A DNA stretch of 64,000 nt, taken from assembly GCA_017861315.1 (NCBI GenBank), contig JAGFXP010000004.1, positions 10,329-74,328 on the forward strand, read 5' to 3'. A model generated the notes under the pieces. The model saw only the letters and a program-made list of their open reading frames with translations, had not been told where the DNA came from and ran no database searches. The translations under genes and the position numbers were made by a program. This document shows, in pieces, positions 12,697 to 52,278 of the stretch. This DNA is from Bacillota bacterium (GTDB lineage Bacteria > Bacillota > Clostridia > Clostridiales > Clostridiaceae). Every line of letters begins with the position of its first letter. The stretch's first letter is position 1.

Positions 12697-13125
12697 TCAA
12701 TTTTCTTTTTTCTTGCATTTCCCGCACAATCCATAGAAATAAACCTGATTGGCAAGAACCTTGTAATCCGTATACTGCTTGATCTCGTCGTTAAGATTAG
12801 AGAAGCAAACATTGTGGATGTCGTCAACCTTCCCGCAGGACAGGCACTGTATGTGAGGGTGTGCGCAGATATTGCCGTCATACCTGAAATTCCCTTCGCC
12901 CACATTGATTTCCTGTACAAGGCCAACCTCTACAAGGGTTTTAAGTGCCTTGTACACAGTTGCAAGGCTCATTGTAGGGTAAAGATCCTGAAGCGATTTA
13001 TATATGGTCTCCGCAGATGGATGTTCTGTAGTGCATTTCAAGTAATTGTATACCGCTATACGCTGAGGTGTGAGTTTCAATTTTTTTTCTTTGAATATGT
13101 TGGTGAGATTGTCCATAAACACCAT
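12697..13125 (-). CDS. Fur family transcriptional regulator (Fur/PerR/Zur subclass not resolvable by eye)
   Basis: Winged helix TPQRIAV, HPHIQCLSCGKV and C-terminal CGKCKKK CxxC pairs. The in-frame ATG at 13116 has a better AGGA SD and may be the real start. Confidence 0.85.
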   Translation of the reverse strand: MVFMDNLTNIFKEKKLKLTPQRIAVYNYLKCTTEHPSAETIYKSLQDLYPTMSLATVYKALKTLVEVGLVQEINVGEGNFRYDGNICAHPHIQCLSCGKVDDIHNVCFSNLNDEIKQYTDYKVLANQVYFYGLCGKCKKKEN

Positions 13126-13224: not shown

Positions 13225-13242
13225 TTGTTATAATATAAACAA
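13225..13242. promoter_or_regulatory. candidate Rex (redox-sensing repressor) operator overlapping an extended -10 box
   Basis: TTGTTATAATATAAACAA matches the clostridial Rex consensus TTGTTAA-N4-TTAACAA at 12/14 specified positions. It sits inside a 7+7 inverted repeat CTTTGTT...AACAAAG. TGtTATAAT is at 13226-13234. Confidence 0.45.
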
Positions 13243-13298: not shown

Positions 13299-13655
13299 AT
13301 GAAAGTAAGAGAAATTAATGAGCTTCTGAACACGGGACCGGTTATATGTTGTGACGATGACATGGAATTTGACATAAAATTTGGATTTGCGTCTGACCTG
13401 ATGAGCGACGTGCTTGCCCTCGCAAACCATGATGTGGTGCTTATCACGGGACTCACCAACATCCAGACAATCAGGACTGCTGAAATGAAGGACATAAAAT
13501 GGATTATTTTTGTCAGGGGAAAGGTGCCGGATGACATAACTGTGGAACTTGCAAAAGAAAACGGTATCAACATCCTTTGCACAAAGGAAACAATGTTCAG
13601 AACGTGCGGAATACTATTCGATCACGGCCTGCGGGGAGCTGAAATAAACAGATGA
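13299..13655 (+). CDS. DRTGG domain-containing protein
   Basis: 118 aa with a VVLITGLTN..QTIRTA pattern typical of DRTGG domains. It is the first gene of the hydrogenase-associated regulatory operon. Confidence 0.8.
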   Translation: MKVREINELLNTGPVICCDDDMEFDIKFGFASDLMSDVLALANHDVVLITGLTNIQTIRTAEMKDIKWIIFVRGKVPDDITVELAKENGINILCTKETMFRTCGILFDHGLRGAEINR

Positions 13656-14080
13656 GTAACGAAATATTAAAACTTCACTACGATATTGCAACCGGTGATT
13701 ACCTTAAAGCAGGAGAAGCGTCAAGCAACATTAAGAAAGCGCTTATGCAGCTCGGAGTTGACAATAAAATAATAAGAAGAGTTTGCGTTGCCAGTTATGA
13801 GGCGGAAATAAATATCGTCATCCACAGTTTGGGCGGATACATGGATATGAACATTTATGAAGACAGGATAGAAATCGTTGCAGCAGATGTCGGCCCCGGG
13901 ATAAGCGATGTGGCGCTTGCCATGACGGTAGGCTATTCAACAGCTACCCAGGGGGCAAGAGAGATGGGCTTCGGCGCCGGCATGGGGCTCCCTAATATCA
14001 AGAACAACTGCGACGAGCTTACTGTGGATTCATCTGCAGGCGGAAGCACGACAATCACTATGAAAATATATTTTAAATAA
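13652..14080 (+). CDS. anti-sigma-factor-like serine kinase / GHKL ATPase (HATPase_c only, 142 aa)
   Basis: ATGA overlap. G1 DVGPGI and G2 GFGAGMGLPN. Size and architecture resemble RsbW/SpoIIAB. Confidence 0.8.
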   Translation: MSNEILKLHYDIATGDYLKAGEASSNIKKALMQLGVDNKIIRRVCVASYEAEINIVIHSLGGYMDMNIYEDRIEIVAADVGPGISDVALAMTVGYSTATQGAREMGFGAGMGLPNIKNNCDELTVDSSAGGSTTITMKIYFK

Positions 14081-14094
14081 GGTTGTGGTAATAT

Positions 14095-15345
14095 ATGACT
14101 AAGCTATTTCATTCGGTAAAACTTATAGAAGATAAGTGCAAGGGATGTAGCAAATGTATGAACAATTGCCCAATGGAGGCAGTCAGGATAAAAAACTCCA
14201 AGGCATTTGTGATAGAGGATAAATGCATAGACTGCGGAGAATGCATTAAGGTATGCCCGTATAACGCACACGACATAGACAGAGACTACCTGGAGGACAT
14301 CCAGAAATACAAAATCAAGGTGGCTGTGCCATCGACAACGCTTTATGCTCAGTTCGGAGAGTATGTCGATCCCGGCATAATACATGCGGCTCTCCTGAAG
14401 CTTGGCTTCGATGAAGTTTACGAACAGACATATGCCTGCGATATCGTGGCGGAGATAACAAAAAAAGAAATCGAAAATACAAAAAAGCCGGCTATATCCT
14501 TGGTATGCCCAAGCATAGCAAGGCTTATAAGCATCAACTATCCTAGTCTTATAGAGAACACCATTAAGGTGCTGACACCTATAGAGGTTGCGGCGAGCCT
14601 GATACGCGAGAAGTATGAGAAAGCCGGGTACAAATATGAGGATGTAGGAATATTTTTCCTCACCCCGTGCGCTGTCTGGCTCACCTCGCTGAAGCAGTCA
14701 CCCACAAAACAGAACCCTGATATAAACGGCATCATAGCTATAAAGGACATCTATTCGAAACTGCTGAAAGAGATCAAGAGCGGCGAGATCGAGAAGCTCG
14801 ATGTTAGCAGCATGTCCTTTACAGGGCTTTCGGTCGTTGTACCTGGAGGACTCTGCAAGAGCATAAACTCAAGCAACTATATAACCGTTGACGGTGTTAA
14901 AAATGTAATCAAGGTGCTGGATGAGGTTGAAAGCGGAAAGCTCCAGGATGTGGAACTAATAGAGCCCTTCGCCTGCAGCGGAGGATGCCTCGGAGGATCA
15001 TTCCTGGTCGAGAATCCTTATAACGCCAGGAGGCTTCTCGACAAATGCATAAAGGATACAAACTTCACGTACAGCTTTGATGAGCTGAGCGACTACTATA
15101 TGCAGCAGTTTGTGGAGAATGTCAGAAACATAAAGTTCTCAAATCAGAAGCTGGCAGAGGATTTCGTCAGCGCTGTCAAAAAGATGAAATACATGAATGA
15201 ACTTGTAAACACGCTGCCCGGTACTGACTGCGGACAGTGCGGTTCTCCTTCCTGCAAGGCCTTTGCGGAGGATGTGGTTAGGGGACTTGCTCACATAGAA
15301 GATTGCAAATACATTAATTTGGGAGGCGACGTCAATGAAGGTTAA
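14095..15345 (+). CDS. [FeFe]-hydrogenase-like putative sensory protein (divergent H-domain, group D/M2e-like) with 2x[4Fe-4S] ferredoxin N-terminus and C-terminal RnfB-type Fe-S domain
   Basis: CKGCSKCMNNCP and CIDCGECIKVCP. H-domain positions read SLVCPSI / LTPCAVWL / FACSGGCLGGS. C-terminal CGQCGSPSCKAF. Confidence 0.8.
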   Translation: MTKLFHSVKLIEDKCKGCSKCMNNCPMEAVRIKNSKAFVIEDKCIDCGECIKVCPYNAHDIDRDYLEDIQKYKIKVAVPSTTLYAQFGEYVDPGIIHAALLKLGFDEVYEQTYACDIVAEITKKEIENTKKPAISLVCPSIARLISINYPSLIENTIKVLTPIEVAASLIREKYEKAGYKYEDVGIFFLTPCAVWLTSLKQSPTKQNPDINGIIAIKDIYSKLLKEIKSGEIEKLDVSSMSFTGLSVVVPGGLCKSINSSNYITVDGVKNVIKVLDEVESGKLQDVELIEPFACSGGCLGGSFLVENPYNARRLLDKCIKDTNFTYSFDELSDYYMQQFVENVRNIKFSNQKLAEDFVSAVKKMKYMNELVNTLPGTDCGQCGSPSCKAFAEDVVRGLAHIEDCKYINLGGDVNEG

Positions 15346-15664
15346 GGATCTGGCTGATAAACTTGGTATGAAAATTTTGACCGGGGAGGAAGGCCTGGAA
15401 AAAGAAATTGAGGGAGGATATACAGGCGACCTGCTGAGCTGGGTAATGTCCCATGCGTCAAAGGGTGACGTATGGATTACTGTCCAGATACATCCAAACA
15501 TAATAGCTGTTGCCGTACTGCTGGAAATGGCAGCGATTATTGTGCCCGAAGATATTCCTGTGGAAGCTTCCACCTTGGAGAAAGCAAACTCGGAAGGCAT
15601 TGCTGTTCTTCAGTCTCCTGATTCTGCGTTTGAACTGTGTGCCAAAATTAAGGCAGCAATGTAG
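15335..15664 (+). CDS. DRTGG domain-containing protein (second copy)
   Basis: 109 aa, 11-nt overlap with the upstream gene, GGGAGG RBS, same fold-type pattern as 13299-13655. Confidence 0.7.
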   Translation: MKVKDLADKLGMKILTGEEGLEKEIEGGYTGDLLSWVMSHASKGDVWITVQIHPNIIAVAVLLEMAAIIVPEDIPVEASTLEKANSEGIAVLQSPDSAFELCAKIKAAM

Positions 15665-15668
15665 AATT

Positions 15669-16376
15669 ATGAAGATTTATACTGATTTTCATATACACAC
15701 CGCATTATCTCCCTGCGGAGATGCGGATATGACCCCGAATAACATTGTGAATATGGCAATCATAAAAGGGTTGGACGCAATTGCGATAACTGACCATAAC
15801 AGCGTTGAAAACGCGGCGACATGCATGGAGGTCGGGAAAGAGAACGGACTCCTAGTCATTCCCGGCATGGAGCTTCAGACAAGGGAGGAAGTGCATGTTG
15901 TGTGCCTCTTCCCTGATATTGAAGCGGCGCTGGCTTTTCAGGAGTATGTTTACTCCAAACTGCCACCTTTGAAAAACAATGAGAAATTGTTTGGAGAGCA
16001 GCTTGTCTTTGATAAGGATGACGAGATCGTAGGTCATAACGACAGGCTGCTTTTGTCGTCCTCAGATATGACACTTCGTGATGCATTTAACAAAGTAAAT
16101 GAATTAAAAGGTGCATTTATCCCCGCCCATATCGACAGGGAAGCATATGGAATCATCAACGCTCTCGGATTCGTTCCAGACGATCTGCCGATTTCGACTC
16201 TGGAGTATAAAAATGAGGAAGGCCTGAAAAAGCTTGTAAACAGCGGGATTGTACCAAAACGCTACAATTTCATCCGGTCGTCTGATGCCCACTACCTTCA
16301 GGACATCTCGGAGCGCCAAAATGAAATGGAAGTAGATGAATTAAATTCTCTCAATATCATCAATAAATTAAAATAA
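15669..16376 (+). CDS. PHP (polymerase/histidinol phosphatase) domain phosphoesterase
   Basis: MKIYTDFHIHTALSPCGD and AITDHNS metal-binding motifs. The ORF-track start at 15510 overlaps the previous gene, so ATG 15669 was chosen. Confidence 0.85.
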   Translation: MKIYTDFHIHTALSPCGDADMTPNNIVNMAIIKGLDAIAITDHNSVENAATCMEVGKENGLLVIPGMELQTREEVHVVCLFPDIEAALAFQEYVYSKLPPLKNNEKLFGEQLVFDKDDEIVGHNDRLLLSSSDMTLRDAFNKVNELKGAFIPAHIDREAYGIINALGFVPDDLPISTLEYKNEEGLKKLVNSGIVPKRYNFIRSSDAHYLQDISERQNEMEVDELNSLNIINKLK

Positions 16377-16379
16377 ATA

Positions 16380-16408
16380 TAGTCAAATCAGAAGTTATTT
16401 GCTATAAT
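16380..16408 (+). promoter_or_regulatory. possible promoter of the structural hydrogenase operon
   Basis: TAGTCA-17 nt-TATAAT, with TGc immediately upstream of the -10 box at 16403-16408. Confidence 0.35.
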
Positions 16409-16543
16409 GATTTTGGTAATATTTTATGAATTTTAAATTGTGCAAATGTGAGAGTTGTTTTAGAATAGTCCGACTGATGAAGGAAATTCTAAAAAATTTA
16501 AAATTGATAATTTATTAATTAACAATCGAAAGGAAGAGATGGT

Positions 16544-17041
16544 GTGAGTAACGAAAAGAATTGCTGCTGTGGATGCAGTCAGGAAGACCCAAGACTAGCT
16601 GAGCTTATGGAAACAATCGACAAGAACAGAGAAACAAAGGGAGCATTAATCCCGGTTCTGCATAAAGTGCAGACATTGTACGGATACCTGCCAGAGGATG
16701 TTCTTCAGGTAGTATCGGAAGAACTAGACGTTCCAATGACAGAGATATACGGTGTTGCTTCTTTCTATTCAATTTTCTCACTTGAACCAAAGGGAGAGCA
16801 CATAATAAGAGTATGCCTCGGAACAGCTTGCTACGTAAAAGGTGCGCAGCTGCTCATCGACGAAATCAGCAAGGATCTGAAAATCGAAGTTGGCCAGACT
16901 ACACCAGATGGAAAATTCACTTTGGAAGCCTGCAGATGCCTCGGAGCATGCGGATTGGCTCCGGTATTGACAGTAGGTGAAAAGGTTTACGGAAGACTCG
17001 TTCCTGAATCAATCCCAGGAATATTAGCAGAATACAAATAA
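16544..17041 (+). CDS. NuoE-like [2Fe-2S] subunit of NAD(P)H-dependent [FeFe] hydrogenase
   Basis: GTG start after AAGGAAGAG. Thioredoxin-like 2Fe-2S motif CLGTAC...CRCLGACGLAP. Confidence 0.9.
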   Translation: MSNEKNCCCGCSQEDPRLAELMETIDKNRETKGALIPVLHKVQTLYGYLPEDVLQVVSEELDVPMTEIYGVASFYSIFSLEPKGEHIIRVCLGTACYVKGAQLLIDEISKDLKIEVGQTTPDGKFTLEACRCLGACGLAPVLTVGEKVYGRLVPESIPGILAEYK

Positions 17042-17053
17042 GGATGTAAAATT

Positions 17054-17602
17054 ATGAGAGAGCTTTCTCTGCATTTGATAGATATAATACAAAACTCGGT
17101 GGTTGCTGGTGCAACTTTGATAGAAATCGAATTGGATGCAAACACGATTGAAAACTACCTGAAGATCACAATAAAGGATAATGGATGCGGAATGGATGAG
17201 GAGACCTTGAAAAAGGTCAAAGACCCTTTTGTAACATCGCGCAAAACCAGAAAGGTTGGACTCGGGCTTTCGCTGTTTGAAGCTGCATGCCAAAGATGCG
17301 ACGGCTATCTGGAAATCTCTTCGGAGAAAGGGAACGGCACGACTGTCACAGCCTTTATGAAATTCAACCATATTGACAGGAGTCCGGTCGGCAATATTGT
17401 GGATACAATTGTAAGTTCTCTGTTAAATGAAAATACAGACATAGTGTACAGGCATATATTTAACGGGGAGAGTTTTGAATTCGACAGCAGAGAAATCAAG
17501 AAGATAGTAGGCGATGACCTGAGCGATCCGGAGATATTGTGCTGGACCAAAGAGTACATTGCCGAGAACATTGAAAATATAGATGGAGGTGCCATTAAAT
17601 GA
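17054..17602 (+). CDS. GHKL/histidine-kinase-like ATPase (no DHp or sensor domain)
   Basis: N-box HLIDIIQNSVVAG, G1 DNGCGM, G2 GLGLSL. Embedded between hydrogenase subunit genes. Confidence 0.8.
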   Translation: MRELSLHLIDIIQNSVVAGATLIEIELDANTIENYLKITIKDNGCGMDEETLKKVKDPFVTSRKTRKVGLGLSLFEAACQRCDGYLEISSEKGNGTTVTAFMKFNHIDRSPVGNIVDTIVSSLLNENTDIVYRHIFNGESFEFDSREIKKIVGDDLSDPEILCWTKEYIAENIENIDGGAIK

Positions 17603-18000
17603 AATCATTAGCTGAATTAGAAGCAATCAGAAAGAAAACCATAGATAATGTGAACCAGAGAACAGACAGAACAACTACAAGAATAGTTGTCGGTATGGCT
17701 ACTTGCGGAATAGCAGCAGGAGCAAGACCTGTTCTTCTTGCAATACTTGACGAAGTCAAAAAGCTTGGCTTAGGGGATGTATCAGTAGTACAGACCGGAT
17801 GCATAGGCGTTTGCAGGCTTGAGCCGATCGTTGAGGTCATAAGACCAGGCGAAGAAAAAGTAACTTACATCAAGATGGATGCTGAAAAAGCAAAGAAAGT
17901 AGTTGACGAGCATGTTGCCGGCGGAAAAGTGTGCGACGAATACGTTATGCACATAGTAGACGGACACGTTGTAAATGACTACACAGTAAAACATGATTAA
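17599..18000 (+). CDS. thioredoxin-like (2Fe-2S) ferredoxin subunit
   Basis: ATGA overlap. Cysteines at MATCGIAAG and GCIGVCRLEP. Confidence 0.85.
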   Translation: MKSLAELEAIRKKTIDNVNQRTDRTTTRIVVGMATCGIAAGARPVLLAILDEVKKLGLGDVSVVQTGCIGVCRLEPIVEVIRPGEEKVTYIKMDAEKAKKVVDEHVAGGKVCDEYVMHIVDGHVVNDYTVKHD

Positions 18001-18038
18001 TACAAATTCGATAAATGTGATTGATTGGAGGAAGTAAG

Positions 18039-19832
18039 ATGGAATTTTACCGTTCACAAGTGCTGGTATGCGGAGGAACAGGATGTACTTCATCTGGTTC
18101 AAATGATATATGTGCTGCACTGAAAAGCGAGTTGGCAGCAAAAGGCTTAGACAAAGAGGTTGAAGTTGTAAAGACAGGATGTTTCGGTCTTTGCGAATTA
18201 GGTCCGATAGTAATAGTTTACCCGGAAGGAGCGTTCTACAGCCAGGTTAAGGTTGAGGATGTTACTGAACTGGTTGAAGAACACCTGTTAAAGGGAAGAA
18301 TAGTAAAGAGACTGGTTTACCATGATGCGATAGAGGATGACAAGATAAAGTCATTGAACAAGGTTGGCTTCTATGCTAAACAGGAAAGAATAGCCCTCAA
18401 AAACTGCGGAGTTATAGATCCTGAAAACATAGATGAATACCTTGCATTCGACGGATACAAGGCGTTGGAAAAAGCATTGACTCAGATGACACCGCTTGAT
18501 GTTATCAACGAAATGAAGAAGTCAGGCTTAAGAGGCAGAGGCGGCGGCGGCTTCCCTACAGGACTCAAATGGGAATTCGCTTACAAGCAGAACAACCCTC
18601 AGAAGTATATAATCTGCAACGCTGACGAAGGAGACCCGGGTGCATTCATGGACCGTTCGGTTCTTGAGGGAGACCCTCACTCAGTGCTGGAAGCTATGGC
18701 TATAGGCGGATACGCCATAGGCGCAAACATGGGCTTCATCTACGTAAGAGCTGAGTACCCAATAGCTGTTAAGAGGCTTGAAGTAGCAATAGACCAGGCT
18801 AGAGAATACGGACTGCTTGGAAAGAATATATTCGAAACCGGATTCGACTTTGACGTCGAAATCAGACTCGGTGCTGGCGCGTTCGTTTGCGGAGAAGAGA
18901 CTGCACTGATCCACTCAATAGAGGGACACAGAGGTATGCCTACTCCAAAACCGCCGTTCCCTGCTGTAAGCGGATTATGGGGAAAACCAACTGTTATAAA
19001 CAACGTTGAAACTTATGCGAACATCCCTCAGATAATCAACAAAGGTGCTGACTGGTTTGCAAGCATAGGAACCGAGAAGAGCAAGGGAACAAAAGTATTT
19101 GCCCTTGGCGGAAAAATCACTAACACTGGTCTCGTAGAGATCCCTATGGGAACTACTCTTAGAGAAGTTATATACGAAATGGGCGGCGGTATCCCTAACA
19201 ACAAGAAGTTCAAGGCTGTTCAGACAGGCGGACCTTCAGGCGGATGCATAACTGCTGAATCCCTTGATACTCCTATCGAGTACGATACTCTTGTAGCGCT
19301 CGGATCAATGATGGGTTCCGGCGGTATGATCGTCATGGACGAAGACAACTGTATGGTTGACGTTGCAAGGTTCTTCCTTGACTTCACAAGAGAAGAGTCC
19401 TGCGGAAAATGTACTCCTTGCAGAGTCGGCACAAAGAGAATGCTTGAAATGCTTGAAAAAATCACTGAAGGAAAAGCTACGCTTGAAGACCTCGACAAGC
19501 TTGAGAAGCTTGCTCTGTCAATCAAGACTTCAGCTCTCTGCGGACTTGGACAGACAGCTCCAAACCCAGTGCTTTCAACTTTGAAATACTTCAGAGACGA
19601 ATACGAAGCTCACGTTGTTGACAAGAAATGTCCGTCAGGAGTATGTAAGGCATTGCTGCAGTACACAATTGTTGATGATGTATGCAAGAAATGCGGTCTC
19701 TGCGTTAAGGCTTGTCCTGTAGGAGCTATATCAGGAAAAGTTAAGGAGCAGTTCATAATCGACCAGGATAAGTGCGTAAAATGCGGAGCTTGTATGGAAA
19801 AATGCCCATTCAAAGCGATAGTCAAGAAATAA
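18039..19832 (+). CDS. NuoF-like NAD(P)H-binding FMN/Fe-S subunit of [FeFe] hydrogenase
   Basis: ATG 18039 follows GGAGGAAG (the ORF is open from 18021). N-terminal 2Fe-2S domain, GRGGGGFPTG FMN/NADH motifs, ESCGKCTPCR, and two C-terminal 4Fe-4S motifs. Confidence 0.93.
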   Translation: MEFYRSQVLVCGGTGCTSSGSNDICAALKSELAAKGLDKEVEVVKTGCFGLCELGPIVIVYPEGAFYSQVKVEDVTELVEEHLLKGRIVKRLVYHDAIEDDKIKSLNKVGFYAKQERIALKNCGVIDPENIDEYLAFDGYKALEKALTQMTPLDVINEMKKSGLRGRGGGGFPTGLKWEFAYKQNNPQKYIICNADEGDPGAFMDRSVLEGDPHSVLEAMAIGGYAIGANMGFIYVRAEYPIAVKRLEVAIDQAREYGLLGKNIFETGFDFDVEIRLGAGAFVCGEETALIHSIEGHRGMPTPKPPFPAVSGLWGKPTVINNVETYANIPQIINKGADWFASIGTEKSKGTKVFALGGKITNTGLVEIPMGTTLREVIYEMGGGIPNNKKFKAVQTGGPSGGCITAESLDTPIEYDTLVALGSMMGSGGMIVMDEDNCMVDVARFFLDFTREESCGKCTPCRVGTKRMLEMLEKITEGKATLEDLDKLEKLALSIKTSALCGLGQTAPNPVLSTLKYFRDEYEAHVVDKKCPSGVCKALLQYTIVDDVCKKCGLCVKACPVGAISGKVKEQFIIDQDKCVKCGACMEKCPFKAIVKK

Positions 19833-19854
19833 CTTTTGTCAAGGAGTGAATTAA

Positions 19855-21591
19855 ATGGAAATGGTTAAATTAACTATAGATGGCCAGCTGGTTGAAGTTC
19901 CAAAAGGAACCACTGTGCTTGAAGCTGCAAGACTGACAGGAATAGAAATTCCTAGCCTTTGTTATATGAAAGACGTAAACCACCCTGCAAGCTGCAGAGT
20001 ATGCGTAGTGGAAGTTGGACCAAGACTTATTGCTTCCTGCACACTAGTAGCAGAAGAAGGAATGAACGTAAAAACTAATACACCTAAGGTAAGAGAAGCA
20101 AGAAAGATGTCAGTTGAACTTCTTCTCTCAAACCACAAAAGGGAATGTACTTCATGTTTGAGAAGTGAAAACTGCGAGCTCCAGACTGTATCAAAGGACC
20201 TAGGAATAAGGGAACTTAGCTATGAAGGCGACAAGACTGAAGCTGTCTGCGACGATTCTTCATGGTCAATAGTCAGGGATCCTGAAAAATGCATACTCTG
20301 CGGAAGATGCATAAGCACATGCTCAGACATACAGACAGTACACGCTATCGGCTGGGCAGGCAGAGGCTTTGAAACAAGAGTTGCACCTGCTTTCGACAGA
20401 AGTCTCGGAGATTCAGTTTGCATAAACTGCGGTCAGTGTATAATGAACTGCCCAGTTGGAGCACTGCATGAAAGAGAAAACGTTCAGGACGTTTGGGATG
20501 CGCTGAATGACCCGGACAAATTCGTTATAATCCAGACAGCTCCAGCTATCAGAGTTGCAATAGGCGAAGAATTCGGAATGCCTATCGGAACAAGCTCAAC
20601 AGGAAAAATGGTTGCTGCTATGAGAAAATTAGGCTTCTACAAAGTGTTTGATACAGACTTTGCTGCTGACCTGACAATCATGGAAGAAGGAACAGAATTC
20701 CTCGGCAGACTGAAAACTGGCGAAAACCTTCCTATAATGACATCATGCTGCCCAGGCTGGATTAAATTCGTAGAGCAGTTCTACCCTGAAATGATAGACA
20801 ATCTTTCAACATGCAAATCACCTCACGAAATGGAAGGCGCTTTGATAAAAGCGTACTACCGTGACAAGTTCGGCCTCGATCCTGAAAAGATTGTAGTAGT
20901 TTCAGTAATGCCTTGTACTGCAAAGAAATTCTCGGTCAAGAGAGAAATGATGAACGTCAACGGCATCGAAGATGTAGATATAGTTCTCACTACAAGAGAA
21001 TTGGCAAGATTGATCAAAGAAGCTGGAATTGACTACATGAACCTTAAGGATGAGGATTTTGACAATCCATTCGGAGAATCAACAGGTGCTGCTGTAATAT
21101 TCGGAGCTACAGGCGGAGTTGCAGAAGCTGCTGTCAGAACAGTACTCGATATCGTTACAGGAAAAGACCTTCAGGATGTTGATCTGACACAGCTCAGAGG
21201 TACTGAAGGAATAAAAGAAGCATCACTTACTTTGCCTGACGGAACAGTATTGAATGTTGCTATAGCAAACGGATTGGGAAATGCAAGGAAAGTTCTCGAT
21301 GCTCAGAAGAGCGGCGAGAAAAACTACCACTTCATAGAAGTAATGGCATGCCCAGGCGGATGCGTAACTGGAGGCGGACAGCCGATAATCGATGCTAAGC
21401 AGCAGGAGAAGTGCGACGTTAGAGCGATGAGGGCAAAGGCTGCTTACGGCGAAGATGCAGGTAAGGCAATAAGGAAATCACACCAGAACCCGTATATCAC
21501 TAAGATATATGAAGAGTACCTTGGAGAGCCAAACGGACACAAGAGCCACGAGCTTCTCCACACTCACTACGTAAAGAGAAGCAAATTCTAA
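19855..21591 (+). CDS. hydA: catalytic [FeFe] hydrogenase, M3 architecture, group A3 (bifurcating-type) by context
   Basis: All three H-cluster signatures are present: TSCCPGW, MPCTAKK, EVMACPGGCVTGGGQP. N-terminal 2Fe-2S, His-ligated 4Fe-4S and 2x4Fe-4S domains. Confidence 0.95.
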   Translation: MEMVKLTIDGQLVEVPKGTTVLEAARLTGIEIPSLCYMKDVNHPASCRVCVVEVGPRLIASCTLVAEEGMNVKTNTPKVREARKMSVELLLSNHKRECTSCLRSENCELQTVSKDLGIRELSYEGDKTEAVCDDSSWSIVRDPEKCILCGRCISTCSDIQTVHAIGWAGRGFETRVAPAFDRSLGDSVCINCGQCIMNCPVGALHERENVQDVWDALNDPDKFVIIQTAPAIRVAIGEEFGMPIGTSSTGKMVAAMRKLGFYKVFDTDFAADLTIMEEGTEFLGRLKTGENLPIMTSCCPGWIKFVEQFYPEMIDNLSTCKSPHEMEGALIKAYYRDKFGLDPEKIVVVSVMPCTAKKFSVKREMMNVNGIEDVDIVLTTRELARLIKEAGIDYMNLKDEDFDNPFGESTGAAVIFGATGGVAEAAVRTVLDIVTGKDLQDVDLTQLRGTEGIKEASLTLPDGTVLNVAIANGLGNARKVLDAQKSGEKNYHFIEVMACPGGCVTGGGQPIIDAKQQEKCDVRAMRAKAAYGEDAGKAIRKSHQNPYITKIYEEYLGEPNGHKSHELLHTHYVKRSKF

Positions 21592-21603
21592 TAGTAAATG
21601 ATT

Positions 21604-21637
21604 AAGGACTGCAATTCAATTGCAGTCCTTTTTTTAT
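21604..21637 (+). terminator. rho-independent terminator after hydA; the T-run overlaps the stop codon of the convergent PP2C gene
   Basis: AAGGACTGCAA-TTCAA-TTGCAGTCCTT followed by TTTTTTTA. Confidence 0.7.
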
Positions 21638-22806
21638 ACAAAATTCAGATTCACTTTTTTGCCGAGACTCTCAATCAGTTCTTTGAGTTCAAGCAGCTTG
21701 TTCAGTTTGATGCTAAGGTCGAGGGGGAAGTCCGGGTTCTGGTGAGCGGGGTTCACGGCTTTGCCAACCCAGAGGTTGAGATGGCTGCATTCGCATATAA
21801 GCATCTTTGCAAGCAGAGATGCCCCGTCGTGTCCGAAAGCCATCCCGTCGTTAAAGAGGTTTTCTATGGGCTTAGAGTACTCCTTAATCTTCTCCAGAGC
21901 CATGCTGAGGGTCAGCACGCCTTCGGTAATGAGGTCGATTCCCTCCATTGTTGCAGTCGGAGGGACCTTTTTGTCAGCAAAGTCCATGTTGACATTCAGA
22001 GCCCTGTTCAGTTCCCTGGAAGCAATGTTTGCAGCGGTGCCTCCGCAGATTATTTTTTTGCCGTGGCCGCTCATGAATTTCATTACAGCTTCACTGTCGG
22101 CTTCGGGATCCTGAGGAGGACCTGAAAACAGGTCCATGTGCTTCTCTCTTTCGGCTTTAATGATGAGGGCTGTGGTGTCGTCGCCGGGACTGTTGCCGTC
22201 GAAGACCATGCAGACCCCGAGGAGCTCCCGGGCCATTTCCCTTGCCGTCTTGTCAGGGCTAGCCAGCTTCTGGAGATAGTCGTTTACTCCTTCCCATTTC
22301 CAGCCGAGGTTCAGGAAGTCGCCTAGACCCGCATGAGTAACTCCGTCGCTGACAATAGCGAAGACGTCGCCCTCCTCGAGGGTGAAGGAGCATTCGGAAA
22401 CGGTCTTTCCGTGGATGATAACGTCCTTTTTCGGGACTTCGCGGTGATTCCCGTTCCTTATGAGGAAGAAGGGCGGGTTGTCATATTCTGCCATGTACAC
22501 CTTGCCGCAGTCTTCTATTTTTATTATGGTGAAGGTTGAGTATGCCAGATCCCTGACCTTGCACACGGGAAGGGTCTTAACTATGGTGTCCACTGTTTCG
22601 TAGATATCCGAGCCTTCCTTCAGCATGGTTGCTGCAATCTTGGATGTCAGCGTGGCGAGGATGTTGGCCTTTACCCCGCTTCCGAGGCCGTCGGAGAGGA
22701 CGATTATGGTTGAGTCGGGAAGCCTTGACACCTCAACCATATCGCCGCAGAGCTCTTCACCTGATTTTATGAGGCTGTGGTGAAATACGTCGATATAAAC
22801 GCCCAT
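21634..22806 (-). CDS. SpoIIE/PP2C family serine phosphatase with an extra C-terminal domain
   Basis: PP2C motifs CGDMVEV and VLSDGLGSG. ATG 22806 lies 1 nt after the HydS stop (the ORF-track start at 22884 overlaps HydS). Confidence 0.85.
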   Translation of the reverse strand: MGVYIDVFHHSLIKSGEELCGDMVEVSRLPDSTIIVLSDGLGSGVKANILATLTSKIAATMLKEGSDIYETVDTIVKTLPVCKVRDLAYSTFTIIKIEDCGKVYMAEYDNPPFFLIRNGNHREVPKKDVIIHGKTVSECSFTLEEGDVFAIVSDGVTHAGLGDFLNLGWKWEGVNDYLQKLASPDKTAREMARELLGVCMVFDGNSPGDDTTALIIKAEREKHMDLFSGPPQDPEADSEAVMKFMSGHGKKIICGGTAANIASRELNRALNVNMDFADKKVPPTATMEGIDLITEGVLTLSMALEKIKEYSKPIENLFNDGMAFGHDGASLLAKMLICECSHLNLWVGKAVNPAHQNPDFPLDLSIKLNKLLELKELIESLGKKVNLNFV

Positions 22807-22807
22807 A

Positions 22808-24529
22808 TCAGTTGCCTTCTTCCTCTGCCTCGACAAGCCTCTTAAGCTTGGTAAGCAGCGTTTTGGTTTCTGCAGTCGTTTCACCGAGGAGGCTGGCTAT
22901 CTCGTGGGCAACGCGCATCTGCTTGTCAATTACCTCCTGGGTTGAAATAAGGGTTTTTTCCCTGAGTGTGTTATATTTCTTCCTTTCCTCTTCCCTGTCG
23001 GCTATGTTGACCATGGACACCATAAGCATATCCTGCTTTGCAAGATATACTATGCTCTGAATGAATATGAGGTTGTAGCTGGGATAAGCCACACGCCTGC
23101 CGATGATGCTTTCGCCTGTCCTCCTGACCTCCCTGAAGCACTCGTCATCCATTAGGGCCGCCACGGGAAGGCCCTTCATCTTTTCCGAATCAACGAGGAA
23201 GGCGTTCCTGCATGCCGGATTCATCTCGATGATGTTCATATCCCCGTCCAGAAGCAGTGTGCAGTTTGCGGTGTGCTCGAATATTACGTTCGTTATGCTT
23301 TCCGCTTTTGTCCTCATATGGTGAAGGCACATGTTTGGCTCCGCCATGCCCTCAAAGATGGCCTGGGCTTTTTCTCTGCAGGTGTTGTAACCGCAGACGC
23401 CGCAGTTCAGCTCGTCCTCTTCGCCGTGTTTCCCCATGTTGCTTAATATGACCTTTATATCGTGCTCGTAGGCCATGGGATGCCTGAAGCTCTTGTCGCA
23501 GAAGGTTCTTTCAAGATTCAGGCTGCCGGCTGGATTTTCAGATCCTGCAGGGCGTATGGATTTCCTGGATTCCAGGTATTGTTTAACCTTGCCCTGCCTT
23601 TTATAGTAGCTGTGCTCGTTCCTCACCATGTCAGGCCCGCCTGTGCAGCTTCCCTTGCAGGAGCTTGCCTCCACGAAGATGTTTCCTATGTCGCCGTTGC
23701 TTATGCTGGTGAACAGGTCCGTGCATTCGTCTGACCCGCTGACAGTGATGATCCGGAGACCCTGCTTGTGTATGTCCTCGCCCATGCACTCTATAATGCC
23801 TCCGAACTCCGGAAAGCTGCGTCCCCTTCCTGCGGTATTCCTGTCAAAGGCTGAAGCGCCAGTGGACAACGGGTCGAGTCCGCTATCCTGAATCCACTGC
23901 TGGATCTCGTCGAAATTCAAGACCGCATCGATCGCCCCGTCGTTGAAAAAGCTTACGTTTTCGGTTTTCTTGGCCATGCATGGTCCTATGAAGACCGAAT
24001 AGCAGTCCTCGCCGTAGAATTGCTTGATCAATTTCCCGTGCGCTATCATAGGAGAGACTGCCGGTATCAGATATTCTGTCAGGGTCGGGTAGTATTTCTC
24101 AACAAGATAGTTTACTGACGGGCAGGCGGTTGTTATATAGATGCCCTGGGACGTATTCTTCACATAATCCATATAGAAATCCGAGACGACCTCTGCGCCT
24201 ACAGCTGTCTCCTCTACAAAGGAAAAACCAAGATTCTTAAGGACGCCCGGAAATTTCCCAGGTTCGAAGTCGAAATACCCTGCAAAGGAAGGAGCGATGC
24301 TGGCGACAACCTTCCTTCCTGTAATGACGGCATTTTTCACGTCGGGCAGGTAGCTTACAACGTTGCGGGCGTTTTGGGGGCATACGAGCAGGCAGTGGGA
24401 GCATGCTATGCACCTGTCCTCGATTATCTCAGCCTGGTCGTTCTTGAATTTTATAGCCTTAACGGGGCAGGATCTGAGGCATTTGTAGCAGCTCTTGCAG
24501 TTGGCTGCTGAGAAATTCATTATGTTCAT
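22808..24529 (-). CDS. sensory [FeFe]-hydrogenase HydS-like protein (group C): 2x4Fe-4S, modified H-domain, extra 4-Cys cluster, PAS domain
   Basis: CKSCYKCLRSCP and CIACSHCLLVCP. H-domain positions read TTACPSV / GPCMAKKTE / SSCKGSCTGGP. CGVCGYNTC...C is followed by a PAS-like segment. Confidence 0.88.
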   Translation of the reverse strand: MNIMNFSAANCKSCYKCLRSCPVKAIKFKNDQAEIIEDRCIACSHCLLVCPQNARNVVSYLPDVKNAVITGRKVVASIAPSFAGYFDFEPGKFPGVLKNLGFSFVEETAVGAEVVSDFYMDYVKNTSQGIYITTACPSVNYLVEKYYPTLTEYLIPAVSPMIAHGKLIKQFYGEDCYSVFIGPCMAKKTENVSFFNDGAIDAVLNFDEIQQWIQDSGLDPLSTGASAFDRNTAGRGRSFPEFGGIIECMGEDIHKQGLRIITVSGSDECTDLFTSISNGDIGNIFVEASSCKGSCTGGPDMVRNEHSYYKRQGKVKQYLESRKSIRPAGSENPAGSLNLERTFCDKSFRHPMAYEHDIKVILSNMGKHGEEDELNCGVCGYNTCREKAQAIFEGMAEPNMCLHHMRTKAESITNVIFEHTANCTLLLDGDMNIIEMNPACRNAFLVDSEKMKGLPVAALMDDECFREVRRTGESIIGRRVAYPSYNLIFIQSIVYLAKQDMLMVSMVNIADREEERKKYNTLREKTLISTQEVIDKQMRVAHEIASLLGETTAETKTLLTKLKRLVEAEEEGN

Positions 24530-24532
24530 TTT

Positions 24533-24775
24533 CTATTCTCCTAAGACATATTTTTTGAAAAAAGCTTCGGCGCAGTCCGGGATTACCGACATGACTTCGC
24601 TTTCATCAACCCTGACGGATACTCCTTTGCTGCACTTTCCAAGGCAATAGGAGCCTTTCAAGGTTACGGAATCTGTAACTGAATTGGCATCTATAAGTTT
24701 CTGAAATATATCGATTATATCATATGCGCCTTTGAGATGGCATGCGCTGCCGACACAGACTGTTATGGTAGTCAT
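24533..24775 (-). CDS. small thioredoxin-like (2Fe-2S) ferredoxin
   Basis: ATG 24775 follows AGGAGG. Cysteine pattern CVGSAC...CLGKC. It is the first gene of the 2Fe2S-HydS-PP2C operon. Confidence 0.75.
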   Translation of the reverse strand: MTTITVCVGSACHLKGAYDIIDIFQKLIDANSVTDSVTLKGSYCLGKCSKGVSVRVDESEVMSVIPDCAEAFFKKYVLGE

Positions 24776-24837: not shown

Positions 24838-24855
24838 ATGTTAAAAAATAAACAA
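24838..24855. promoter_or_regulatory. weaker candidate Rex operator between the HydS operon and pilD
   Basis: ATGTTAAAAAATAAACAA matches TTGTTAA-N4-TTAACAA at 12/14, but it is low-complexity A/T sequence. Confidence 0.3.
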
Positions 24856-51549: not shown

Positions 51550-52278
51550 GTGCAGGACGAAATAGCGCTACAGGTAAAACATCTGAACAAGAGCTTTGAC
51601 AAAAAGCAGATACTCCACGATGTAAGCCTTGACGTACATAAAGCAAAAATCCTGGGGCTGCTTGGACCATCGGGATCGGGAAAGACGACTCTGGTGAAGC
51701 TAATGGCGGGTATAGACTCACCGGACAGCGGAGAGGTCTTCATCCTCGGAGAGAAAGTACCTAATCTCAAGATGCTCAACAGGATAGGCTACATGGCCCA
51801 GGCAGACGCGTTGTACGGGGAGCTTACGGCGGAAGAGAATCTGGAATTTTTCGCCTCGATGTACGGCCTAAGGAAGTCTGAAAAGAAGAATCGGATCGAA
51901 GAAGTCATGAAGATAGTGAATCTTTACGACTACCTCAAGATTCAGGTTAAGAAGTATTCGGGCGGCATGAAGCGAAGGCTGTCCCTTGCCATAGCGCTTC
52001 TCCATAAACCTCCCATCCTGGTTCTCGATGAACCAACGGTAGGAATCGATCCCGTCCTGAGGATAAGCATATGGGAGGAGCTCTACGAGTTGTGCAGAAA
52101 CGGCACTACCATCATCGTAACCACCCATGTCATGGACGAAGCTGAGAAGTGCCATGAACTGGGCATGATCAGGGAGGGAAGGCTCATAGCCCTTGGAACC
52201 CCTGAAGAAATCCTCAAGGCATCAGATTCCGAGACAATAGAGGAAGCTTTCCTCTTCTACGGGGGTGTTAAGAGATGA
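51550..52278 (+). CDS. ABC transporter ATP-binding protein (ABC-2/DrrA type)
   Basis: GTG start after GGAAGGAG. Walker A GPSGSGKT, signature YSGGMKRR, Walker B ILVLDEP. Confidence 0.9.
   Translation: MQDEIALQVKHLNKSFDKKQILHDVSLDVHKAKILGLLGPSGSGKTTLVKLMAGIDSPDSGEVFILGEKVPNLKMLNRIGYMAQADALYGELTAEENLEFFASMYGLRKSEKKNRIEEVMKIVNLYDYLKIQVKKYSGGMKRRLSLAIALLHKPPILVLDEPTVGIDPVLRISIWEELYELCRNGTTIIVTTHVMDEAEKCHELGMIREGRLIALGTPEEILKASDSETIEEAFLFYGGVKR

Follow-up and report, generated by a model that had tools for sequence, protein, structure and literature searches.

What do two hydrogenase-like proteins do when they flank the operon of a third, and do both of them sense H2? The question is posed by positions 13299-24775 of a 64,000-nucleotide stretch of Bacillota (Clostridiaceae) DNA (hereafter, the window), taken from the metagenome-assembled genome of an uncultured bacterium, in which a preliminary description, made from the sequence alone, had recognised one catalytic and two non-catalytic-looking [FeFe]-hydrogenase paralogues and had proposed that two different H2 sensors bracket a bifurcating enzyme in a two-input control circuit. 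The answer that we arrive at differs in part. The locus probably comprises a HydABC-type hydrogenase operon set beside two separate, known regulatory modules, and the upstream hydrogenase-like protein, of 416 amino acids (aa), is within that reading the more likely to be a redox sensor or an atypical cofactor binder. The double flanking is a rare juxtaposition of two ordinary, previously described modules.

Genes were called from an open reading frame (ORF) map and Pfam scans, and their starts were refined from homologues and checked in the sequence. This adjusted the coordinates of the PP2C, thioredoxin-like, PHP and HydB genes, and the PHP start was placed at the ATG at 15669, in agreement with 235-aa homologues. 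The locus then reads as follows.

13299-13655, plus strand: DRTGG-domain protein 1 (118 aa; weak Pfam DRTGG match), at a position kept in most of the 80 related loci listed
13652-14080, plus strand: HATPase_c_2 protein, SpoIIAB/RsbW-type serine kinase-like (142 aa; Pfam HATPase_c_2 28.7 bits, above the cut-off)
14095-15345, plus strand: 416-aa H-domain protein of M2e architecture (group D lineage), from Pfam, alignment and AlphaFold2 (AF2)/Foldseek
15335-15664, plus strand: DRTGG-domain protein 2 (109 aa; weak Pfam DRTGG and Hpr_kinase_N matches), at a position kept in related loci
15669-16376, plus strand: PHP-domain phosphoesterase, final gene of the group D module (235 aa; Pfam PHP E 2.7e-11)
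16544-17041, plus strand: HydC, NuoE-like thioredoxin-like [2Fe-2S] subunit (Pfam PF01257 E 1.5e-51)
17054-17602, plus strand: stand-alone histidine-kinase-like ATPase domain in the hyd operon (Pfam HATPase_c E 1.2e-17)
17599-18000, plus strand: small thioredoxin-like [2Fe-2S] ferredoxin, HydD-like (133 aa; weak PF01257 match)
18039-19832, plus strand: HydB, NuoF-like FMN/NADH subunit with extra Fe-S domains (Pfam domains, PDB sequence match)
19855-21591, plus strand: HydA, catalytic group A [FeFe] hydrogenase of the bifurcating type (all H-cluster signature residues)
21604-21630, unstranded: terminator-like hairpin with a 12-bp stem and a T-run, between the convergent hydA and PP2C stop codons
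21634-22806, minus strand: hfsC-type PP2C phosphatase (390 aa; Pfam SpoIIE)
22808-24529, minus strand: group C HydS/HfsB-type H-domain protein (573 aa; two [4Fe-4S] motifs, H-domain, Cx2Cx4Cx16C, PAS, invariant C-terminal helix)
24533-24775, minus strand: HfsA-like thioredoxin-like [2Fe-2S] protein (80 aa; Pfam PF01257)

The H-cluster domain PF02906 is present in all three of the genes for which it had been claimed (14095-15345, E 3e-26; 19855-21591, E 2.7e-100; 22808-24529, E 2.4e-50). We aligned their products using MAFFT with relatives, with CpI, whose residues 197-574 (from a PDB alignment) served as the reference, and with TamHydS. The last of these was rebuilt from the codon-optimised gene in Table S1 of PMC13104023, and the reconstruction is sound, because C20, A137, C138, S249, E252, D265, E289 and C379 agree with the published numbering. 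The four ligand positions (CpI C300, C355, C499 and C503) are retained in all three window proteins, so that the cluster cysteines proposed in the preliminary description do align with H-cluster ligands, and HydA alone of the three also retains C299, M353, K358 and M497, which leaves 19855-21591 as the only gene with all catalytic signatures. The proton-relay cysteine is lost from both other proteins, with A135 (the PAS-containing protein) and V137 (the 416-aa protein) at CpI C299, and both carry PF04060 and the additional C-terminal Fe-S motif, Cx2Cx4Cx16C, that has been described for M2e and M2f (Land et al., PMC8163306). On each of these points the preliminary description was right. Pairwise identity among the three H-domains is only 24%; they are therefore old paralogues, and a recent tandem duplication is ruled out by the same figure. 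No group C or group D enzyme is among the solved structures, and pocket residues were therefore judged by alignment only.

It is the pocket of the [2Fe] subsite that sets the 416-aa protein apart. Its architecture (two N-terminal [4Fe-4S] motifs, an H-domain, a C-terminal Cx2Cx4Cx16C and no PAS domain) is that of M2e, and its ligand cysteines are C138, C192, C294 and C298. At CpI positions 299, 353, 358 and 497, it has V137, T190, W195 and F292; it thus lacks the distal-cyanide lysine, because W195 occupies the position of CpI K358, and the missing lysine of the MPCxxK motif had been noticed correctly from the start. Further, S80-T81-T82 stands in place of A-P-S, which replaces the proximal-cyanide proline, and the group D proton path (TamHydS E252-E289-S249-D265), for which strong conservation has been reported, is incomplete, with L253 and P250 replacing E252 and S249, while E290 and D266 are kept. 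Both the 416-aa protein and the PAS-containing protein score below every NCBIfam hydrogenase cut-off. The AF2 model of the 416-aa protein has a predicted local distance difference test score (pLDDT) of 84.7, and its top Foldseek matches are the [FeFe] hydrogenases DdH, CbA5H and CpI, at template modelling (TM) scores of 0.65-0.72.

These replacements belong to a lineage and not to one protein. Among the 120 closest cluster representatives of the 416-aa protein, every one of the 70 that are at least 46% identical has S-[V/T/I]-[T/A] at CpI 230-232, a bulky F/L/V/I/M at 299 and W or R at K358. Where TamHydS has E252, the residues Q, L, I and M predominate in this subclade. All of the 49 representatives that are at most 43% identical, and TamHydS with them, have A-P-[S/T/A], Ala at CpI 299 and Lys at K358, and Glu is found at the E252 position in all but one of these 49. 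Within the subclade, the K358 position is W in 56 of 71 sequences and R in the other 15, and the position of CpI A272 is Cys in 62 of 71. Since the replacement residues are themselves conserved, we read the pocket as a functional variant rather than as decay; a pseudogene is ruled out by the intact ORF, the 71 subclade sequences with the same replacements and the confident model. On its aligned residues, the 416-aa protein is a member of a Caloramator/Thermobrachium-like subclade that keeps the [4Fe-4S]H cysteines and replaces residues predicted to hold or serve the [2Fe] subsite. A protein of Thermobrachium celere is 56% identical to it, and entries from T. celere and Caloramator australicus, matched by species name, are among the 70 published group D enzymes; therefore, the subclade probably falls within what the field calls group D. 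The group D class first suggested for this protein is supported by its M2e architecture and by the conserved group D module in which it lies upstream of HydCBA.

A wider survey, in a representative library of 1.84 billion proteins, gave 140 group D-like representatives at 50% clustering (P0361-P0509), in which the subclade of the window is essentially one 50% cluster. The four cysteines are kept in all 140, and the K358 position holds Lys in 94 and another residue (R, Q, N, L, M, H and others) in 46, which weakens the idea that the W195 subclade is unique in losing the lysine. The predicted 4122-aa protein P0400 contains 14 separate stretches that match the 416-aa protein, and it may be a repeat protein or an artefact of assembly or gene calling. 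We take CpI K358 to be the equivalent of K228 of CrHydA1. The latter residue has been called “extremely well conserved”, fixes the distal cyanide and, when varied, prevents H-cluster assembly (PMC9516953), and TamHydS E252, the proposed first proton relay of group D, yields variants (E252V/D) that lose H2 oxidation (PMC10407848). With Lys in only 94 of the 140 representatives and with the pocket replacements of the subclade, the claim that the 416-aa paralogue senses H2 is therefore doubtful, and its aligned pocket residues make it more likely that this protein senses redox state through its [4Fe-4S] clusters, or binds a cofactor in an atypical way, than that it is an H2 sensor of the TamHydS kind.

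The comparison with TamHydS of Thermoanaerobacter mathranii (Land et al. 2020, PMC8163306; Cabotaje et al. 2023, PMC10407848), the closest of the known systems to this part of the locus in its features, cuts both ways. The two proteins share the two [4Fe-4S] motifs, the H-domain, the Cx2Cx4Cx16C motif and the absence of a PAS domain, as well as the four ligand cysteines, a residue other than Cys at CpI 299 and the equivalents of E289 and D265. TamHydS is likewise encoded upstream of a trimeric bifurcating hydrogenase and beside a histidine-kinase-like ATPase (PMC8163306). However, the 416-aa protein is only 38% identical to it and has W195 for the distal-cyanide lysine, L253 for E252, V137 for A137 and S-T-T for A-P-S, differences that are common to the entire Caloramator/Thermobrachium-like subclade.

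Between the two paralogues lies the operon of the enzyme itself. It runs hydC, kinase-like ATPase, small 2Fe-2S ferredoxin, hydB, hydA, and the NuoE- and NuoF-like subunits that had been seen beside HydA are recovered by Pfam as HydC and HydB. HydA has the complete H-cluster signature set (CpI C299, C300, M353, C355, K358, M497, C499 and C503) and passes the NCBIfam model NF040763, “NADH-dependent [FeFe] hydrogenase, group A6” (score 897.8, cut-off 765). It matches HydA1 of Acetobacterium woodii at 768 bits and that of Thermoanaerobacter kivui at 638 bits, and HydB matches HydB of the same organisms at 998 bits (7q4v_B) and 765 bits. HydA, HydB and HydC are thus orthologous in sequence and domain content to subunits of the HydABC(D) complexes of A. 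woodii (PDB 7q4v) and T. kivui (PDB 8a6t), the nearest relatives with solved structures, and the window operon also encodes an additional small 2Fe-2S protein. This 133-aa ferredoxin has PDB matches in the N-terminal 2Fe-2S domains of chains from HoxF, NfnB and HydB. The operon differs from those of the two model complexes in the kinase-like ATPase gene between hydC and the small ferredoxin gene, a stand-alone ATPase between hydC and hydB that is kept in many related loci. By homology, HydCBA is an electron-bifurcating/confurcating HydABC-type [FeFe] hydrogenase operon, with this activity being predicted.

Upstream of the operon, the five genes for the DRTGG, SpoIIAB/RsbW-like ATPase, 416-aa H-domain, second DRTGG and PHP proteins form a co-directional module 5' of hydC, with a gap of 167 bp between the PHP gene and hydC. 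To see how general this context is, species-representative genomes were scanned with the 416-aa protein, and the neighbourhoods of the 80 loci listed, whose relatives are only 37-44% identical, were mapped by tblastn with all window proteins, with HydB linkage defined as within 10 kb. The complete five-gene module is present in 66 of the 80. HydB lies within 10 kb in 37 of the 57 adequately flanked loci, downstream and co-directional as in the window in 24, divergent in 11 and upstream in 2, and the order hydC, ATPase, ferredoxin, hydB, hydA is the usual one in the group D-linked loci listed. This agrees with the literature, in which D(M2e) genes adjoin A1 TR(M3) operons in Caldicellulosiruptor, Caldanaerobacter, C. 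phytofermentans and C. thermocellum (Carere et al. 2012, PMC3561251), and sensory hydrogenases are mostly found upstream of bifurcating ones with a kinase between them (PMC3561251). The upstream unit is an already known group D module context, and the arrangement is no new principle: papers of 2012 and 2020 had already placed sensor-type hydrogenases, set apart by a kinase, upstream of bifurcating enzymes (PMC3561251, PMC8163306).

Two further observations concern this module. In locus L172 (7290-14794), a W195-type module has NuoE/NuoF-like genes on one side and the large- and small-subunit genes of a [NiFe] hydrogenase on the other, with no [FeFe] HydA within 10 kb of it; the group D module may also serve non-[FeFe] hydrogenases. 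In the window, a gene for a Fur-family regulator (12697-13125, minus strand) is divergent from the module and is preceded by a perfect sigma-70-like promoter (13177-13149); a Fur-family neighbour is also found in L081 and L084.

Downstream, the trio that encodes the thioredoxin-like 2Fe-2S protein, the PAS-containing H-domain protein (HydS) and the PP2C converges on hydA from behind the terminator-like hairpin. At CpI positions 299, 353, 358 and 497, HydS has A135, G182, K187 and S289, which corresponds to the pattern of TmHydS (A131, Ser at 267 and a small residue at the 353 position; PMC10055695), and its cluster cysteines C376, C379, C384 and C401 are invariant among homologues. What had been described as a PAS-like segment is a real PAS domain: the isolated C-terminal segment scores 23.5 with PAS_4, above the gathering score of 23.1, and 7 of 9 homologues match PAS_9 and PAS_4. 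The helix that follows it (22844-22948, minus strand, residues ~528-562; QEVIxKQMRVAxEIAxLLGETTAETK...) is almost invariant among 14 homologues that are 50-84% identical overall, and it may be an interaction surface for the phosphatase. In its small 2Fe-2S gene, PAS-containing H-domain protein and PP2C, the trio resembles hfsABCD of Thermoanaerobacterium saccharolyticum and the group C (M2f) proteins HydS of Ruminococcus albus and TmHydS of Thermotoga maritima, and like the first of these it has a predicted Rex site upstream. It differs from hfsABCD in having no hfsD/HydA2-type ferredoxin-dependent hydrogenase gene after the PP2C on the minus strand, where the hydA stop codon and the hairpin are found instead and the trio converges on hydA of the bifurcating operon; a further difference is that no kinase gene lies inside the trio. 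Because hfsD is absent, the trio is hfsABC-like and not hfsABCD, and the hfs-type resemblance first proposed for it holds for hfsABC. Overall, the trio, in which HydS sits between an hfsA-like 2Fe-2S protein and an hfsC-like PP2C, is, on gene content and residue pattern, an hfsABC-type group C (M2f) module, in line with the original class assignment, with its H2-dependent signalling being putative.

Whether this module has anything to do with the operon that it faces can be asked of its relatives. Metagenomes scanned with aligned HydS relatives yielded 80 loci, of which 55 had enough downstream DNA. The order 2Fe-2S protein, HydS, PP2C is found in nearly all of the 80. Fifteen of the 55 trios adjoin HydABC (10 converge on hydA, which is the layout of the window, and 5 are co-directional after the HydABC operon), 28 are followed by a further H-domain gene in the hfsD/HydA2 arrangement, and 12 have neither arrangement. 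These numbers bear on the alternative that the juxtaposition is incidental, with the trio regulating alcohol dehydrogenase or general redox genes and only the upstream module belonging to the hyd operon. The trio forms a convergent transcription unit of its own, set off from hydA by the terminator-like hairpin, and it stands alone in C. scatologenes and another genome, in addition to the 12 metagenome loci with no hydrogenase neighbour. In Thermoanaerobacterium, in which hfsD encodes the catalytic ferredoxin-linked hydrogenase and hfsC a serine phosphatase (PMC11837493), deletion of hfsA or hfsB raises adhE expression and lowers H2 production more than deletion of the whole operon does (PMC5707799). 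These single-deletion phenotypes, which exceed that of the operon deletion, have been taken to argue for a regulatory role, and they qualify the statement in the preliminary description that no signalling pathway has been demonstrated, which holds roughly, at the biochemical level. The hfsB effect on adhE would suit a trio with other targets. On the other hand, 43 of the 55 flanked trios adjoin a catalytic-type hydrogenase gene, 10 of them in the same convergent HydA layout, and the arrangement of the window is conserved down to 73% protein identity, which makes an incidental neighbourhood unlikely in our view.

The association of each module with hydrogenase genes is thus already in the literature and is common in the samples taken here. 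Having both at one operon is another matter. None of the 80 group D-centred genome loci listed has a group C protein or a trio-type PP2C within 10 kb, and only 2 of the 80 group C-centred metagenome loci have a group D module. One of these (L093, on the same contig as L081) encodes a group D-type protein that is 73% identical to that of the window, in the same gene order. The other (L116, 4528-16075) represents an independent lineage, in which hydCBA is followed by the 2Fe-2S/HydS/PP2C trio and then by a convergent group D module whose H-domain protein keeps the lysine and has Gln at the E252 position. No trio is found near other relatives of the 416-aa protein in Clostridium tepidiprofundi, T. 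celere, Fervidicella and several metagenome-assembled genomes, and in known genomes the two sensor classes are generally found at different loci, each with a bifurcating operon of its own (PMC3561251). Both modules therefore occur at one HydABC operon in only two lineages among the 160 sampled loci, which is uncommon and not unique.

The same data allow the proposal of the preliminary description to be weighed, according to which each hydrogenase-like protein is a true H2 sensor, of a class different from that of the other, and the two feed a two-input circuit controlling the operon between them. Its class assignments are supported. The four H-cluster cysteines and the motif for the C-terminal cluster are present in both, and the characterised TmHydS and TamHydS bind the H-cluster with low turnover (PMC10055695, PMC8163306, PMC10407848). 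All three units are together again, in a different order, in L116, the arrangement is kept in L081, and in C. tepidiprofundi the group D module is headed by a PP2C orthologue, so that some comparative support for a circuit comes from C. tepidiprofundi and L116. The part of the proposal that fares badly is the 416-aa protein as an H2 sensor, given a subclade that lacks the lysine (here W195), the relay glutamate (L253) and the proximal-cyanide proline of the [2Fe] subsite and has Val for Ala137 of TamHydS. In addition, the double arrangement is rare, and close relatives of the group D-type protein have no trio nearby. We infer that a circuit with two H2 inputs is improbable, and we favour the reading of two known modules beside a HydABC operon, with a redox sensor or atypical binder in the upstream one.

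A link between the modules could nevertheless run through their kinase- and phosphatase-like proteins. The N-terminal domain of the PP2C is SpoIIE/RsbU-like, and its model retrieves the SpoIIE, RsbU and RsbX phosphatases in Foldseek; the matches are all of the PP2C family and, judged by aligned length and query TM-score, cover no more than the N-terminal PP2C domain. The C-terminal part is a conserved alpha/beta domain of ~165 aa (21637-22131, minus strand; residues ~226-390) with no Pfam match and no significant PDB sequence match (best E 0.19). Members of the family from many Clostridium species share at least 57% identity, and the window protein is 61% identical to the PP2C after HydS in C. 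scatologenes. In C. tepidiprofundi (L086, 8006-9172), a full-length orthologue, 56% identical, directly precedes a group D module of the same orientation and has no HydS as a neighbour. For its part, the ATPase of the group D module gives sub-threshold NCBIfam matches to the anti-sigma F and anti-sigma B kinases. The likeness of the ATPase to SpoIIAB/RsbW and of the PP2C model to SpoIIE, RsbU and RsbX structures recalls the partner-switching pairs SpoIIAB-SpoIIE and RsbW-RsbU/RsbX, from which the locus differs in that no STAS-domain antagonist or sigma factor is encoded nearby, and in that kinase and phosphatase lie in separate modules. The C. tepidiprofundi operon hints at a shared phospho-circuit, in which the PP2C and the module kinase would act on a common target.

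Taken further, the 416-aa protein, if without a canonical [2Fe] subsite, would report ferredoxin/NADH redox state through its [4Fe-4S] clusters, the PAS-containing HydS would report H2, and the SpoIIAB-like kinase and SpoIIE-like phosphatase would share a phospho-target, perhaps a DRTGG protein, in a push-pull switch on HydABC. We regard this full scheme as unlikely. If it were true, H2 pressure and redox state would be integrated in the setting of HydABC, and a sizeable fraction of group D-like proteins would also be without a canonical [2Fe] subsite. Weakest of all is the view that the two paralogues are low-activity catalytic hydrogenases or electron-transfer subunits alongside HydABC rather than sensors, which draws on the measurable H2 turnover of TmHydS and TamHydS (PMC10055695, PMC10407848) and on ferredoxin-like clusters suited to electron transfer in both window proteins, and which we consider very unlikely, as the operons of both encode signalling proteins (kinase-like, phosphatase, PAS and DRTGG), neither has the proton pathway of group A and both fail the curated hydrogenase family cut-offs.

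Within the favoured reading of two known modules beside a HydABC operon, the promoter regions offer a lead on transcriptional control, in the form of the following sites.

13225-13242, unstranded: candidate Rex-type operator TTGTTATAATATAAACAA, 57 bp upstream of the first group D module gene (TTGTTAANNNNTTAACAA with 2 mismatches)
16380-16408, unstranded: promoter-like site upstream of hydC
16504-16525, unstranded: candidate Rex-type operator pair upstream of hydC (consensus match)
24838-24855, unstranded: candidate Rex-type operator upstream of the trio (2 mismatches)

The sequence TAATTTATTAATTAACAA is also present upstream of hydC in L081 and L085, and L081 has TTGTTTAAAAAATAACAA at the equivalent place upstream of the trio. 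The Firmicutes-type Rex pattern has 10 matches in the window, against 3.5 expected by shuffling, and 5 of the 10 are in the three promoter regions of the locus. In T. saccharolyticum, Rex sites are predicted upstream of hfsABCD and of a PHP-domain gene (PMC5886521). A tblastn search of the window with a B. subtilis Rex sequence found no rex gene. Because the intergenic DNA is AT-rich, we treat the sites as a lead and not as a finding.

How the parts might work together can be sketched under this reading. HydS would turn over H2 slowly, and the resulting redox signal would pass to its C-terminal [4Fe-4S] cluster, then to the PAS domain and on to the PP2C phosphatase. In the group D module, the kinase-like ATPase and the PHP phosphoesterase would act on a phospho-target, for which the DRTGG proteins are candidates. 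Both modules would tune the synthesis or activity of HydABC, with Rex-type repression probably superimposed. That two inputs converge on the operon, as first suggested, remains an inference.

Several observations weigh against this reading. First, the Trp or Arg at the K358 position might still hydrogen-bond the cyanide, so that residue patterns by themselves are no proof that the [2Fe] subsite is lost, and the intact reading frame of the group D-type protein, its good conservation and its confident model with a hydrogenase fold are compatible with cofactor binding. Second, neither module is tied to hydrogenase genes without exception: the group D module has no hydrogenase within 10 kb in 20 of the 57 adequately flanked loci and in L173, and the trio is also found apart from such genes, as in the C. 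scatologenes case above. Third, neither module encodes a phospho-target or a DNA-binding output, and the Rex sites match a consensus against an AT-rich background.

The scanned surroundings of the locus are ordinary. The neighbouring ORFs (20 ORFs of at least 200 aa that lie outside the locus and start before position 52000) are housekeeping genes. A 1431-aa protein (35187-39482) with two BcrAD/BadFG ATPase domains and DUF2229 is of the CoA-enzyme activase type, which is usual for Clostridia and unrelated to the locus. As had been stated, the window contains no maturase genes, here by tblastn with HydE, HydG and HydF of T. celere as queries.

The lysine deemed essential for H-cluster assembly and the proposed glutamate relay are not general among group D-like proteins, and conclusions drawn from TamHydS should therefore not be extended to the whole group unchecked. 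At the level of gene arrangement, the window locus and L116 put both sensor-type classes beside one operon, and C. tepidiprofundi joins a group C-type phosphatase to a group D module, which provides a concrete kinase/phosphatase pairing. These observations bear on H2 sensing in fermenting anaerobes and on how such organisms control the amount of their bifurcating hydrogenase and the direction in which it works.

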